IMG/VR virus record: IMGVR_UViG_2651869821_000001
DNA length: 64,000 nt
Origin: a virus
Taxonomy: Duplodnaviria > Heunggongvirae > Uroviricota > Caudoviricetes
Strand: one strand, 5' to 3'
The translations under genes were made by a program, and so were the position numbers. How positions within the stretch are numbered: position 1 is the first letter of the stretch; every line of letters begins with the position of its first letter. The notes under the pieces are model-generated. The model saw only the letters and a program-made list of their open reading frames with translations. It did no database searches and was not told where the DNA came from. Below, in pieces: positions 1 to 46,597 of this stretch.

Positions 1-857
1 TCAGGATTTCGCTGGCTGTATAAATGCCATCCCTGGTCGTCGTCCAGTTCAATTACAGTGGGTCTGTCAGAATTTCCCCATAAATTAAAACGCGAATTCA
101 GCGATGAGTTATTGTCACTCGTCAGTGATAATTTTCTACCGTCACCCGCGAGTACATCACCCACAACATATAATTTCCCCGGCTGCAAACGAGCCACAAG
201 AGCGTTATTGGCATAAACATCCAGTACCCCGTCGCTATTCTGTTTAAGACCAGTATCGTTATCGCCGAGCACAATAGAATTACCGCCAAGTGCGTTATCC
301 GTACCGATACCCAACGCACCGTTAATGCGACCACCGTTAACTGAAAGCGCCCCCATTTCGTCGGCTGATGGTTTGTTTACGGTATTGAAATCGCGTCGCC
401 AGCCCGGAGAGTAATCACCGCCGTTATTGATATACGTAAACTGAGCGCTGGCAACCCCTCCTCCTGACGTTGTTGTTGGGGTAGTGACGCGTATTGTCAT
501 TGCACCACGAAATCCCATCACCTCAACAACTGCACCGGCCAGACAGATATTACCGCATCCAGTATCCGTGATTGTCTTGTTGTCGGCGTAACTCCATGAA
601 CCCCGACACATCCAGTACCGATGATTAAATGCACCTTGCGACTCCAGCCAGACGATAAATTCCGCAGTAGTCCACGGATTGCTGTCACCTCCGATATGAA
701 TCCCGCCACTAAATGCCAGCGCCGCCCCGATATTCTGTGCAAATAACCCCTTGTCAGGAATATCGCCGCCATTCTGGTCTTTTTGCATGGCGCCGGCTGC
801 GCGATTTATGGTTTCTCTTAAACCAACGTTTTTGAAAATGCACAAGATAGCCTTAAA
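1..857 (-). CDS. Tail-fibre C-terminal (variable-type) cassette; 5' end lies on the crossover site, 3' end runs off the window (partial)
   Basis: Hand translation of the minus strand from about 857 (alternative Met at 788) to position 1 gives more than 280 codons with no stop. The product is G/N/S/T-rich and fibre-like (..NGGDIPDKGLFAQNIGAALAFSGGIHIGGDSNPW..NGGRINGALGIGTDNALGGNSIVLGDNDTGLKQNSDGV..). It is absent from the supplied track because no stop falls inside the window. Confidence 0.5.
813..838. promoter_or_regulatory. 26-bp hix/gix/cix-like crossover site for the adjacent DNA invertase
   Basis: TTCTCTTAAACCAACGTTTTTGAAAA versus the remembered hixL TTCTTGAAAACCAAGGTTTTTGATAA. Same length, central AA dinucleotide and imperfect dyad. 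It lies inside the 5' end of the minus-strand fibre cassette and about 50 bp upstream of the invertase start. Confidence 0.55.
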
Positions 858-885
858 TGGCATTATTCAGGCTTTTAAGAGGGGA

Positions 886-1448
886 GCTGTCGTGCAAATT
901 GGCTATGTGCGGGTGTCAACAAATGACCAGAACACCGATTTACAGCGAAACGCGCTGAAGTGCGCAGGATGTGAGCTGATATTTGAAGACAAAATAAGCG
1001 GAACTAAAGCAGAAAGGCCGGGGCTAAAAAACTGCTCCGGACATTAACTGCAGGAGACACACTGGTCGTATGGAAGTTAGATCGCCTTGGTCGCAGTATG
1101 CGTCATCTGGTCGTTCTGATAGAGGAGCTGCGGGAGCGTGGCGTTAATTTCCGCAGCCTGACCGACAGCATAGACACGTCGACGCCAATGGGGCGATTCT
1201 TCTTTCATGTCATGGGCGCACTCGCTGAAATGGAACGTGAATTGATTGTGGAAAGAACTCGCGCCGGACTGGAGGCGGCAAGAGCGTATGGACGCATTGG
1301 TGGCCGACGACCGAAACTAACATCGGAACAATGGGCACAGGCCGGACGCCTGATTAAAGCTGGAGAATCACGCAAACGTGTGGCTCTTATATACGACATT
1401 GGACTATCCACTCTTTATAAAAAATTCCCCGCATCGACAAAATCATAA
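886..1448 (+). pseudogene. Gin/Cin/Pin/Hin-family serine DNA invertase, split by a -1 frameshift in an A6 run (1026..1031)
   Basis: GTG start with AGGGGAG RBS; VQIGYVRVSTNDQNTDLQRNAL..ERPGLKK (catalytic Ser region). The second ORF continues [49 protein letters not shown] (C-terminal HTH). The two track ORFs 751..1047 and 1098..1448 join into one invertase if one A is added in the homopolymer. Confidence 0.85.
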
Positions 1449-1514
1449 TATATGTATGTTAGTACTTACTATATAAATATGGTATAAACTATCCATCTAT
1501 CTGTTTGACTTTTC

Positions 1515-1850
1515 ATGGAGGAATTAATGTCGAACGAGATGGCAGGTGTTACGCCTGAACAGGTGGAGCGTATTGCCGCTATCGTTGCGCGAGAAGTTGT
1601 TGGTAAGTTAGGTAAGGAGTTACGAGAGGAGATTGGTCAGGAGGTTAATGATCAGCTCAAAACCTATTTTGGCGATATGACACCTGCGCAACACAGCATT
1701 CAACACTCAAACTTAGATAAGCTTCTGAATAGGTTAGACACCATTTCCAGTGGTTTTTTTGGGGGCATTGTCTCCAAAATTACGTCGATTCTAATCACAG
1801 CACTGATTTTGGGTCTTGCCGCCTATGGCGTAAAAAGTGGAATGAAATAA
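1515..1850 (+). CDS. Small protein with one C-terminal TM segment; possible holin or lysis regulator
   Basis: RBS GGAGG upstream; soluble coiled N-terminal part then ITSILITALILGLAAYGV TM; first gene of the lysis cluster. Confidence 0.3.
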   Translation: MEELMSNEMAGVTPEQVERIAAIVAREVVGKLGKELREEIGQEVNDQLKTYFGDMTPAQHSIQHSNLDKLLNRLDTISSGFFGGIVSKITSILITALILGLAAYGVKSGMK

Positions 1851-1863
1851 CAGGAGATCACGG

Positions 1864-2556
1864 ATGAATACTCCAAGAGGAATTAGAAACAATAACCCTG
1901 GCAATCTTGATAAGGGATCGCCGTGGCAGGGGTTAATCAATAATCCTTCCGAATCACGTTTCTGCACGTTCAAAGATCCAGTTTGGGGAATTAGAGCACT
2001 GGCAGTTACGCTTATCACTTATCACGATAAACGCCGCGCAAGAGATGGCTCCAGTATAGATACCATCCGCGAAGTCATTGAACGATGGGCGCCTCCACAT
2101 GAGAACAACACTACGGCATATATTAATGAGGTAGCAAAAGCTGTTGGTGTTTCTCCGGATATGACAATAGATCTTCACAACTATGACACCATTAGACCGT
2201 TGGTTGAAGCCATTATTCGACATGAGAATGGTCGTGGGCCTCTTAAAACTCCAAATACATGGTATGCCTCAGAAATAGTCGAAGAAGGTCTTCGTCGTGC
2301 AGGTATCGTTAAGCCTGTCAAAACAGTTAAATCCGTTCCTGTTACTAAAGAAACAGCTGGAGCGACTGTTACTGCTGGCATTGGGTTAGCGCAACTTGCC
2401 GACGTAATGCCACAAGTCTCAATCGCGATGGATAAAGCCCAGGGGCACATTACTAGCGGTGATACGGTCCGCATTATTTTCGGTATTGCAACTATTGTAG
2501 TAGCCGGCTTTATCGCATGGTCTCAGGTTCGTAAACATCAACAGGGGATAGTCTGA
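1864..2556 (+). CDS. Putative peptidoglycan hydrolase (muramidase-like endolysin) with C-terminal TM anchor
   Basis: N-terminal GIRNNNPGNL..W.G signature that I associate with phage muramidase-family endolysins; C-terminal IIFGIATIVVAGFIAW hydrophobic helix; directly precedes Rz/Rz1. Confidence 0.45.
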   Translation: MNTPRGIRNNNPGNLDKGSPWQGLINNPSESRFCTFKDPVWGIRALAVTLITYHDKRRARDGSSIDTIREVIERWAPPHENNTTAYINEVAKAVGVSPDMTIDLHNYDTIRPLVEAIIRHENGRGPLKTPNTWYASEIVEEGLRRAGIVKPVKTVKSVPVTKETAGATVTAGIGLAQLADVMPQVSIAMDKAQGHITSGDTVRIIFGIATIVVAGFIAWSQVRKHQQGIV

Positions 2557-2810
2557 TGCTTACTGGCAGCCTATTTTCACAGATTAAAAGTGGTCTGATG
2601 ACGTTGGCTGCCGTTCTTTTAGTGCTTGTCGGGGCATATTCATTGGGTGGGAGAGCGGCTCGACAAGCACTTGAAGAAAAGGCCAGACGAGAAGATAACA
2701 GGCGACTACAGAATACCGTGGATGAGAAAAATGAGACTATCAACGAGATACGGCGTAAGGATGCTTCTGTCGTTCATCATGAGCTTCATGATAAGTGGAT
2801 GCGTGATTAA
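2556..2810 (+). CDS. i-spanin (Rz-like)
   Basis: ATGA start overlap with the upstream gene; N-terminal TM (LMTLAAVLLVLVGAY) followed by charged coiled-coil periplasmic region. Confidence 0.6.
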   Translation: MLTGSLFSQIKSGLMTLAAVLLVLVGAYSLGGRAARQALEEKARREDNRRLQNTVDEKNETINEIRRKDASVVHHELHDKWMRD

Positions 2811-2970
2811 GCCTCAAACGGTAGGGGTTCTTTTTTGTGATGGGGCAAACCCTATCTACGTCAGTCGGGACGACAGTATGACCGAACAAACTGAACGTGA
2901 AATACTCATTCATAACACGCTTGGAGAGCGGTTATGCCACTGGCAATATGGAACATCGTCCACTAAATAA
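2761..2970 (+). CDS. o-spanin (Rz1-like lipoprotein), +1 frame, overlapping the 3' end of Rz
   Basis: RBS TAAGG then ATG at 2761; signal peptide ending in lipobox MISGC; short Pro/Thr-containing mature part; classic embedded/overlapping Rz1 arrangement. Confidence 0.55.
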   Translation: MLLSFIMSFMISGCVIKPQTVGVLFCDGANPIYVSRDDSMTEQTEREILIHNTLGERLCHWQYGTSSTK

Positions 2971-2973
2971 ACA

Positions 2974-2997
2974 AGCCCCGTAATGGGGCTTCTCGTC
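2974..2997 (+). terminator. Hairpin after the lysis cluster
   Basis: AGCCCCGTAATGGGGCT stem-loop followed by TCTCGTC. Confidence 0.45.
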
Positions 2998-3114
2998 AAC
3001 CGTCAGTACCTGACAATTAACCTTTACACCGTCGCCGTAGGCATTTAGGCTATATCCCATATAAGAAAACAAGTTGTTTCATACGACTATAATTCACGCA
3101 AAGGGAGCTATCCA

Positions 3115-3780
3115 ATGACCAGGATCATTGTGGTTGGCGGCACGAAAGGCGGGCCTGGCAAATCTACAGTTGCCCAGCAAATTGCTGTATGCCTAAAAGT
3201 TAAAAAGAAAAAGAAAATCCAAATTACAGATATTGATATTCAGCGCACTACTACTAGCTGGTGTGAAGACCGACGCCAGAATGAAGATCTTGAACTTATT
3301 CCTTTCGCTTATGTGCCTGATGATATTGTAAAACACATCAAATCACTCAAAGGGCGTTTTGAATATGTCGTGGTCGATGCAGGAGGTTTCGACTCCGAAA
3401 TTCAGCGCCAAGTGATGCTGTTGGCGGACTTCATTATCATTCCGCTTCGCCCTAAACGCCGTGATCTGAAATCCCTTCGTGACATTGACCCAATTATAGA
3501 TAACGTTAGGAACGTCAACGAAAAAGTGAAGATCCGAGCAGTGATTAACCAATGCCCGTCACTACCTTCGCAGGCATCCCGTATTCTGGCTGCCAAAGAT
3601 ATTGTGGAAACATTTGGTATAGAGTCCGCCCCCGTTAATCTTTACAACCGTAACGTCTATGACGATGCAGAAGAAGCTGGTCGTTCAATTTTTGAAATGA
3701 CCGGTGCGGAACGTGACAAAAAGGCGGAAGCCGAGTTTGAAGAGTTTGTAGATTACATCTTGAGTCTGGAGGAAAAATAA
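3115..3780 (+). CDS. parA: ParA-family partition ATPase
   Basis: MTRIIVVGGTKGGPGKSTVAQ deviant Walker A, ParA-like length (221 aa), followed by a small basic partner ORF. Confidence 0.7.
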   Translation: MTRIIVVGGTKGGPGKSTVAQQIAVCLKVKKKKKIQITDIDIQRTTTSWCEDRRQNEDLELIPFAYVPDDIVKHIKSLKGRFEYVVVDAGGFDSEIQRQVMLLADFIIIPLRPKRRDLKSLRDIDPIIDNVRNVNEKVKIRAVINQCPSLPSQASRILAAKDIVETFGIESAPVNLYNRNVYDDAEEAGRSIFEMTGAERDKKAEAEFEEFVDYILSLEEK

Positions 3781-9208: not shown

Positions 9209-10531
9209 ATGGAAAAACTGATTGCCCTAAAGCATAAGCTGGATGCCATCAAAACGATGGGAACCAACGCCAAGAAAGAGGCGCTGGCCAACCTTGATGA
9301 ATTTGAGCAGAGCATGGTCTCGCTAATGCTCAACCCATTTATTCGATTCGGTGTGAAGAAGTACAAAGTGGCCAAGCCACTCGAAACTTCTGTACCCAGC
9401 GACCAGAAAGTAGTAGAGCTGCTGGAGAAGCTGGCGGCGCGCGAACTGACCGGGAACGCGGCCATTACTGCTGTCGAATCACTCGTTGCCTCGATGTGCG
9501 CTGACGGGCAGGACGTGTTTCGTCGCTTCCTGCTGAAAGATCCGAAAGCCGGCGTCGGTATCAGCCTGTGCAATAAGGTGTTCGAAAACCCAATTCCGAA
9601 GTTTGAGGTACAGCTGGCCTCTCCGTACAAGGAGAAAGGCGACAAATACCCATTCAAACCAAACCCCAAAGCCAGGTGGCCAATGATCGGCAGTCTCAAG
9701 CTGGATGGGCTGCGCGTCATCTGTGAAGTCATTGTAGATGAGGAAGAGGTTAATTTCCTGTCGCGCACCGGCAACCTTATAACATCTCTCGATCACCTTA
9801 AACCCGCCATGCTGGAGTTGGGGAAGCTATCAGGCTACAAACACATCTTCTTTGATGGCGAAGGTACTGCTGGTTCGTTTAATAACTCCGTCTCAGCGCT
9901 GCGCAAGAAGAAGGTGAAGGCTGTCGGCGCCATCTACCATATCTTCGATTTCTTTCTTCCTGAGTGGCGCGTTCAGGCTAAAACGATCGAATACCAGAAG
10001 AGCGGTATGAAGCTGAAACAGCGTCTCTCAATGTTGGTGGCGTGGTTCAAAAATACTCGCGGTCAGGATTACGCTACAGATATTCATATGCATCCCTTCT
10101 ACATCATTTACAGCCACGAAGACTATGTAGAACGCTTTATGAAGCGTCTGGACGCAAATGAAGAAGGGGAGATGGGTAAAGATCCTGATTCCGTCTATGA
10201 ATTCAAGCGCACCCGTAGCTGGTGGAAACTAAAAGATGAAAACGAAGCTGATGGAGAGATTATCGGCTTCCTACCTGGAGATCCGGATGCTGGCTTTGCA
10301 CATACCCTCGGCAAAATCGTCATTCGACTCGAAGATGGAACTGAGGTCCGCGCTTCTGGAATCAAGCATCGCTACCTCGATGAGATCTGGCATAACCAGG
10401 ACAAATACATGGGGCGTATTGTGAAGGTGAATTTCCACGAGTATACGCCAGATGGCAGTCTGCGTCATCCGCGGCTGAAATGGCCTAAATGCCTTCGTGA
10501 TACCGAAGAACGTATCGGAGATAAAGAATGA
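9209..10531 (+). CDS. ATP-dependent DNA ligase
   Basis: KLDGLRV (KxDG adenylation motif I), 440 aa; sits in the replication gene block. Confidence 0.75.
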   Translation: MEKLIALKHKLDAIKTMGTNAKKEALANLDEFEQSMVSLMLNPFIRFGVKKYKVAKPLETSVPSDQKVVELLEKLAARELTGNAAITAVESLVASMCADGQDVFRRFLLKDPKAGVGISLCNKVFENPIPKFEVQLASPYKEKGDKYPFKPNPKARWPMIGSLKLDGLRVICEVIVDEEEVNFLSRTGNLITSLDHLKPAMLELGKLSGYKHIFFDGEGTAGSFNNSVSALRKKKVKAVGAIYHIFDFFLPEWRVQAKTIEYQKSGMKLKQRLSMLVAWFKNTRGQDYATDIHMHPFYIIYSHEDYVERFMKRLDANEEGEMGKDPDSVYEFKRTRSWWKLKDENEADGEIIGFLPGDPDAGFAHTLGKIVIRLEDGTEVRASGIKHRYLDEIWHNQDKYMGRIVKVNFHEYTPDGSLRHPRLKWPKCLRDTEERIGDKE

Positions 10532-15961: not shown

Positions 15962-16040
15962 TTATTGCCCCTTTAAGAAGCATTTCATTTTGTGTGGCAT
16001 CATTGTCCTTTAATTCTTATTTTCCGTCAAACTGACTATA

Positions 16041-33236: not shown

Positions 33237-33304
33237 ACACAATGATTGTGCGCCGCATGGCGCACAATAATATAAATAAGTACTTACCAACAAGGAGAAA
33301 ACAC

Positions 33305-46434: not shown

Positions 46435-46597
46435 GTACTAACTTATTATAATATATTGTGTCTGCGTGTATGTTTTCTATCTCTTTGTAGCTCTCTTTGT
46501 TACTCTCTTTTATGGTGGCCTTGTGCCACCATTTTTTCTGCTTATTTATTGCGAGACTAGATTCCATACAGTTAAAATCGTGTAAGATAATAGGTAT

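Follow-up and report, generated by a model that had tools for sequence, protein, structure and literature searches.

The left end of the DNA analysed here (the window, 64,000 nucleotides) carries part of a tail-fibre inversion module. We consider it reasonably probable that this module is a switch of the Mu G/P1 C type on an SSU5-family phage-plasmid, that the A6 lesion in its invertase gene is genuine, and that its segment can still be flipped by other invertases. The module itself is textbook biology and represents a known kind of switch.

In the proposed mechanism, the constant N-terminal part of the fibre gene would end at the left 26-bp site, and the adjoining 3,451-bp segment would hold two fibre C-termini with their chaperones, arranged as Sv-U and inverted U'-Sv'. 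A Hin-family invertase would cut both sites at the central AA and rotate the segment, so that the constant part would continue in frame into the other cassette and the receptor specificity would change. The cassette beside the invertase would be the silent one in the window copy. The element's own invertase gene, having lost one A of an A7 tract, would yield only a 51-aa fragment, barring a rare -1 slip. The window segment would most likely still be flipped, since Hin-family invertases are interchangeable, with a predicted supply in trans from chromosomal hin of Salmonella and from prophage-borne Gin-like genes, the choice of enzyme being part of the prediction.

The carrier was assigned by nucleotide identity. 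AnCo3, a plasmid of S. Derby, was 99.2% identical to the window over 7.7 kb, and pFSIS12033266-1 and pSTM_Phi showed 94-96% identity. The replication genes of the window were 84% identical to those of phage SSU5, which places the window, on the strength of these alignments, among the SSU5-family phage-plasmids of Salmonella enterica, in the AnCo3/pSTM_Phi group. Megablast gave no match between SSU5 and window positions 1-3000; the SSU5 matches start in the replication genes. A ParA-like gene was found downstream of the lysis cassette that follows the invertase (Table 1). The left edge of the window lies inside an inverted repeat common to both fibre cassettes, and this repeat is the break point of short-read assemblies. 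The AnCo3 record NZ_KY515226.1 is declared complete as a single Illumina contig and likewise ends in the cassettes' inverted repeat; it is without U' and the 3' part of Sv' (the silent cassette), about 890 bp, and its end (position 15995 of locus L003) is joined to its start (position 1 of locus L001, equal to window position 12), 11 bases inside the window start. The papers on AnCo3 and on phage-plasmids make no mention of the invertase or of inversion.

Table 1. Positions of the inversion-module features and of the adjacent lysis genes in the window
Feature	Position	Strand	Remarks
Silent tail-fibre C-terminal cassette (Sv'-type, 'cassette 2')	1..866	-	Open frame of 288 codons, exits the window at left
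Right arm of the inverted repeat	757..829		Cassette inner end, inner half-site, core and CGT
Right 26-bp crossover site of the hix/gix/cix family	813..838		Inner half TTCTCTTAAACC, core AA 825-826, outer half CGTTTTTGAAAA
Shine-Dalgarno-like AAGAGGGGAG before the invertase start	877..886	+	Read from the sequence
Invertase N-terminal fragment	892..1047	+	51 codons, then TAA (1045-1047); Pfam Resolvase E=8.6e-13
-1 frame with the remaining invertase	1008..1448	+	Open from 1008; rest of the catalytic domain and HTH_7
A6 tract	1026..1031	+	-1 allele of A7 (CTA AAA AAA CTG = L K K L)
Small membrane protein (phrog_5093), endolysin (phrog_873), Rz-like spanin (phrog_1026)	1515-2810		Lysis cassette directly 3' of the invertase

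An earlier reading of the window, made from the sequence only, had described a fibre-like minus-strand frame of more than 280 codons running off the window, and this description was confirmed. The frame follows an in-frame stop at 869-867, has its first ATG at 863-861, and matched PHROG tail-fibre families (phrog_26292, E=3.8e-54; phrog_6722, E=1.5e-53; and many more). In locus L006, the same cassette is expressed: it forms the end of a fibre gene of 926 aa, joined in frame to the constant part, and the window cassette was 99.5-99.9% identical to that copy. Therefore, the window copy is a good cassette that is currently silent, in agreement with the sequence-only reading, which had taken it for the silent alternative C-terminus of the fibre.

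The crossover site that had been proposed in the early cassette codons starts nine codons into the cassette frame. The half-site pattern, two imperfectly symmetric 12-bp half-sites around a 2-bp core, was matched on both strands at this position and nowhere else in the 64 kb, and 100 shuffles gave no such site. The site was also compared with hixL and hixR as read from a Salmonella chromosome; by eye, 20 of the 26 positions are equal to those of hixL. Reverse-complemented, the left arm in L003 (AnCo3) is identical to the right arm of the inverted repeat in the window. The pattern scan gave no second crossover site in the 64-kb window, which begins inside the invertible segment. Additionally, invertases of this family depend on an enhancer bound by Fis, located in the 5' part of the gene about 100 bp from one site. 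A conserved GTGTCAACAAATGAC (913-927) lies about 95 bp from the core, at the distance of the Hin enhancer (PMC3798978), but protein coding constrains the same bases, so that its conservation argues neither for nor against an enhancer here.

The adjacent gene encodes a Gin/Cin-like invertase, as had been supposed. Its reading frame is interrupted: the zero frame stops within the gene and the remainder lies in the -1 frame, in which the first ATG is at 1098 and the stop TAA at 1446-1448. Both fragments (892-1047, and 1098-1448 from the ATG) matched Pfam Resolvase, and the C-terminal fragment also matched HTH_7. One added A, or one re-read base, restores a protein of 185 aa with matches to PF00239 (Resolvase, E=5.2e-50), PF02796 (HTH_7, E=7.5e-14), PHROG 125 'DNA invertase' (E=2e-94), and the Gin structures 3uj3 and 4m6f (E about 1e-91; 3uj3 over residues 1-182). 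The restored protein thus has the architecture of the Gin/Hin/Cin/Pin serine invertases, a resolvase catalytic domain at the N-terminus and HTH_7 at the C-terminus in a total of about 185-195 aa. The catalytic residue, Ser9 (916-918), lies in YVRVSTNDQ and was aligned to residue 9 of Gin in 4m6f; 3uj3 has Ala at this position. The gene had been placed at 886..1448, and its stop at 1448 holds. The start, however, is the GTG at 892, behind the Shine-Dalgarno-like stretch; position 886 lies two in-frame codons upstream of it. The claim that the frame is lost by one A in the A6 run also stands, since adding an A gives the exact protein present on 268 contigs. Outside the tract, the gene carries no damage (the restored protein is P0121), and no second serine invertase was found in the 64-kb window.

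The part of the module lying to the left of the window was examined in relatives. There, the constant fibre part and the second, inverted site were found 3.45 kb to the left, where the sequence-only reading had proposed to look for them. The order in complete relatives is a J-like tail protein, the fibre gene and a chaperone, then a second chaperone and the silent cassette, both on the other strand, and finally the invertase. With the segment in orientation A, the fibre gene encodes 941 aa, and with it in orientation B, 926 aa; the silent cassette encodes 401 or 416 aa on the strand opposite the fibre gene. The chaperones, a Tfa of 172 aa and a Tfa of 177 aa on the opposite strand, both match PF02413. 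In the complete relatives, the left site, located within the fibre gene, pairs with the right site in inverted orientation and likewise has core AA; the core-to-core distance was 3,451 bp in every locus. The inner half-site of the elements reads TTCTC(T/G)(T/C)AAACC before the core AA, and the outer half-site is CGTATTCGATAA at the left and CGTTT(T/C)TGAAAA at the right. Thus, two alternative fibre C-termini with their own chaperones join one constant part according to orientation in these relatives.

Inversion was seen between close relatives carrying the intact A7 invertase. In the pairs L002/L021 and L039/L040, the inner 3,451 bp were 100% identical but inverted, and the flanks differed by 0-1 mismatch over 6-8 kb. 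Between orientation variants, the inner halves move with the cassettes, whereas the outer halves stay. Near the core, the arms of L002-like elements differ at several positions, which narrows the exchange down to AAACC-AA-CGT (about 10 bp). We therefore rejected a RecA-type inversion between the arms for these elements; exchange at the core is characteristic of Hin-family rather than homologous recombination. We also considered the A8 records L046/AnCo3 versus L006 as a simple flip and rejected this, because about 100 mismatches separate their segments; the pair is thus uninformative on inversion after the frameshift.

Tract length differs between close relatives: the window has A6, AnCo3 has A8, and CP119474.1, in which the gene is annotated as intact, has A7. 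More distant relatives have GAAAAAG at this place, from which A7 was derived by two synonymous changes. Contingency tracts usually comprise at least 8-9 A/T, and the wild-type tract here is A7. By exact-sequence look-up, the restored protein was present on 268 contigs and other intact variants on 153, 47, 19, and 9, against 23 for the C-terminal fragment, 21 for the A8 N-terminal fragment, and one for the A6 N-terminal fragment (CDV89364.1). In an allele survey of loci fetched via the invertase C-terminal fragment and the chaperones, A8 occurred in ten loci and A6 in L011, a Logan assembly that was the only other A6 found and has a backbone different from that of the window. The lesions also included A9 with a 10-bp deletion (L015), the loss of one base 9 nt 3' of the tract, here called delta-G (L014, L044, and L055), and an unambiguous null allele, in which an IS6-family (IS26-like) transposase gene lies inside the invertase (L007 2050-2754, ERR14757582). 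Judged by SNP distances over 2.9 kb, at least four backbones carry A8 and two carry A6, and most of these backbones have an A7 relative 0-4 SNPs away in the 2.9 kb. Consequently, at least seven independent changes of tract length have switched the frame among close relatives. By our estimate, at least seven changes in a 7-bp target of a 558-bp gene, compared with three lesions elsewhere, is far above a uniform expectation, which points to the tract as a recurrent replication-slippage hotspot in this family. Homopolymer slippage, one of the three options raised from the sequence only (beside a frozen switch and a sequencing error), thus has its support between isolates, in the form of A6, A7, A8, and A9 alleles on several backbones.

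Whether a broken invertase gene means a frozen switch was judged from clones that share a frameshift. The delta-G frameshift is common to L044 (orientation B, 2 samples) and L055 (orientation A, 11 samples), whose flanks match without a difference over 4.8 and 4.3 kb and whose segments have one and the same sequence in opposite orientations. Likewise, L045 (B) and L050 (A) share A8 and have identical flanks and identical but inverted segments. All four are L002-like with imperfect arms, and the exchange therefore again took place at the core. Short of the same lesion having arisen twice in each clone, these results indicate that a Hin-family enzyme was still at work when the invertase gene of the element itself was already broken. 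An orientation pair for the A6 allele was not found among the loci, so that for the window copy we extrapolate from the delta-G and A8 alleles that its switch is probably not frozen either.

Frameshifted clones in both orientations call either for an invertase in trans, from Hin or prophage enzymes, an option that the sequence-only reading had not raised, or for leaky decoding. A source in trans is plausible. Hin, Gin, Cin, and Pin are classically interchangeable. Candidate genes are chromosomal hin, the near-identical invertase genes carried by Mu-like and lambdoid prophages, and a more distantly related one of the N15-like elements. In addition, Fin of Fels-2 can invert the H segment in the absence of Hin and is reported to act on hix (PMC4122451).

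The opposite view is that the frameshift is real but no other invertase acts, so that cassette 1 is expressed, cassette 2 is permanently silent, and the invertase is a decaying pseudogene in an element living mostly as a plasmid. We regard this as unlikely, though less so than the other alternatives. The gene is indeed broken in the window copy, the unambiguous nulls in relatives (the IS6-family insertion in L007 and the 10-bp deletion in L015) show that loss of the invertase is tolerated, and broken alleles were seen fixed in either orientation. However, this view is contradicted in relatives by the clonal pairs that carry one frameshift in both orientations with exchange at the core; moreover, Hin-family enzymes cross-act, and the invertase gene has not decayed beyond the tract.

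That the isolate truly has A7 and an intact invertase, with the missing A a sequencing or assembly error, seems improbable to us for this record. Homopolymers are the classic site of indel errors, and the A6 N-terminal fragment is recorded on a single contig. Nevertheless, an independent A6 allele is present in L011 on its other backbone, and A8 alleles recur in many Illumina assemblies (the AnCo3 and Logan assemblies are Illumina data). A T7G5 run 700 bp from the tract showed no variation in 37 of 37 loci. Compared with AnCo3, the window has the tract as its only coding indel over 56 kb, and the five other homopolymer indels are all intergenic. Because the nearby T7G5 run is invariant and the tract is the sole coding indel, the frameshift is probably real; because the tract recurrently slips, the lesion is most probably a genuine recent mutation, rather than a sequencing error or a designed feature. 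The intergenic length polymorphisms between the window and AnCo3 lie at positions 33298, 44236, 46480-46532, 52117, and 52976 and comprise A4/A3, C5/C4, a 12-bp repeat unit, T6/T5, C6/C7, and A9/A7; some of them are located at ribosome-binding or terminator-like sequences.

Finally, the tract might itself be a second-order switch or a recoding site, at which 'broken' alleles leak invertase and sustain a low rate of flipping. By this account, an IS1-type ribosomal slip at A6 would give the exact wild-type protein, A8 would be correctable by transcriptional slippage, and delta-G would be correctable by a -1 slip on A7, 9 nt upstream. The window reads CT[A AAA AAC], in which the IS1-type A6C heptamer is in phase and is continued by the -1 frame, and in a slip simulation the re-reading of one base after AAA yielded exactly the wild-type protein. 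The A6C motif of IS1 is documented (PMC12428005). Of the frameshift alleles seen in multiple samples (A6, A8, and delta-G), none is more than 12 nt away from the tract, and with two of them flipping persists; the A7 tract arose from GAAAAAG by the two synonymous changes mentioned above. In IS1 insA-insB', the heptamer A AAA AAC is read in the codon phase that it has in the window, the protein is likewise continued in the -1 frame, and a zero-frame stop is close behind; unlike here, the motif is the conserved wild type in IS1, whereas in this family it is a rare mutant of A7 with no downstream structure. The search for a frameshift-stimulating structure 3' of the tract found none, the region folding worse than shuffled sequence (z=+1.45). 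The heptamer is in phase, but without such a structure and as a rare allele it does not have the properties of a programmed -1 frameshift. With intact A7 by far the commonest allele, contingency tracts usually longer than A7, frameshifting at an A6C motif alone very rare (PMC12428005), and supply in trans accounting for the flipping without recoding, we consider this account very improbable. The corresponding picture of the tract as a leaky gate, through which the element would alternate between a fast-switching state (A7) and slow-switching ones, has an equally slender chance of being correct; if true, it would be a second-order switch layered on a DNA-inversion switch.

Returning to the preferred reading, in which other invertases act on the segment, a contact between the element and the flagellar switch was seen in natural isolates. 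Three NCBI assemblies place the intact invertase of the element next to iroB on the chromosome, with a hybrid site at the join, TTCTTGAAAACC-AA-CGTTTCTGAAAA, located at 9922-9947 in L016, 9921-9946 in L017, and 9922-9947 in L018 (equal to window 813-838) and found with two element haplotypes. The left half of the hybrid and its 3-kb flank are 94% identical to the outer side of hixL up to the core, and the right half corresponds to the outer half-site of the element. No more than AAACCAA is common to both at the join, which argues for a site-specific product rather than an assembler join. The hybrid thus looks like a product of Hin-family recombination between the flagellar switch and the phage-plasmid. 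It may have originated by integration at hixL or by inversion against an already integrated copy. The reciprocal hixL junction was not found in pattern scans of viral and metagenome contigs, and look-ups with the chaperone proteins returned other prophages or plasmid-state copies. An exact look-up of four predicted junction ORFs also gave none, a weak negative in that their leader was an assumed LT2 sequence.

Two further observations concern chromosomal surroundings. Immediately beyond hixL, the chromosome carries a sequence (CACGATTTATTGGTTCTTGAAAACC; L026, about 3395-3430, minus strand, and L016, about 9890-9921) that resembles the cassette inner end (CACGACTTATGGTTTCTCGCAAACC), and it looks as if a phage fibre-gene remnant lies beside hin. 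In addition, a contig of 1,519,552 bp contains an intact invertase, both chaperones, and the plasmid-state ORF of the silent cassette; the SSU5-like element in this 1.5-Mb contig appears to be joined to the chromosome by a route other than the right site.

The module is shared with other types of phage. The 3.45-kb segment was also present in N15-like (TelK) linear phage-plasmids and in Mu-like and lambdoid prophages of Salmonella (loci L027-L034, L035-L036, L038, L041, L042, L047, L048, and L054). The adjoining invertase is near-identical in the Mu-like and lambdoid prophages and has 198 aa in the N15-like elements. Some Mu-like, lambdoid, and SSU5-like elements have a U' chaperone in common that is 100% identical, and a 94% identical one is present in the N15-like ones. 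This sharing of the chaperone across phage types indicates that the module has been exchanged as a unit.

Taken together, these results describe a large family of Salmonella phage-plasmids with a fibre-inversion module that is exchangeable with Mu-like, lambdoid, and N15-like prophages. In relatives of the window, the invertase is repeatedly knocked out at one homopolymer and the segment keeps flipping. An invertase called as a pseudogene is therefore not equivalent to a host-range switch that is off, which matters for the prediction of phage host range from genomes. The recombination of the element's site with chromosomal hixL in natural isolates would tie a mobile host-range switch to the flagellar phase-variation locus. 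For annotation, it is relevant that short-read assemblies break or are mis-closed at the module.

Among the known systems, Salmonella Hin/hix belongs to the same recombinase subfamily and site family, with hixL being TTCTTGAAAACCAAGGTTTTTGATAA, as checked in the chromosome. In contrast to the present module, Hin flips a promoter and sits inside its own segment, whereas the element's segment carries coding cassettes and its invertase lies outside. Fels-2 Fin, e14 Pin, and other prophage fibre invertases are also related, window 803-1348 having 84-85% DNA identity to the invertase-fibre junction of phage SEN8 and Fels-2, but they are found on different phage backbones. The organisation is that of the Mu G segment with Gin and the P1 C segment with Cin, which share the constant fibre part, the site, Sv-U / U'-Sv', the second site, and the invertase outside, as well as 26-bp sites composed of 12-bp half-sites and a 2-bp core. 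Unlike in these systems, the carrier here is a siphovirus-like SSU5-family phage-plasmid and not a myovirus, the cassette sequences differ, and the invertase is frameshifted in the window copy.
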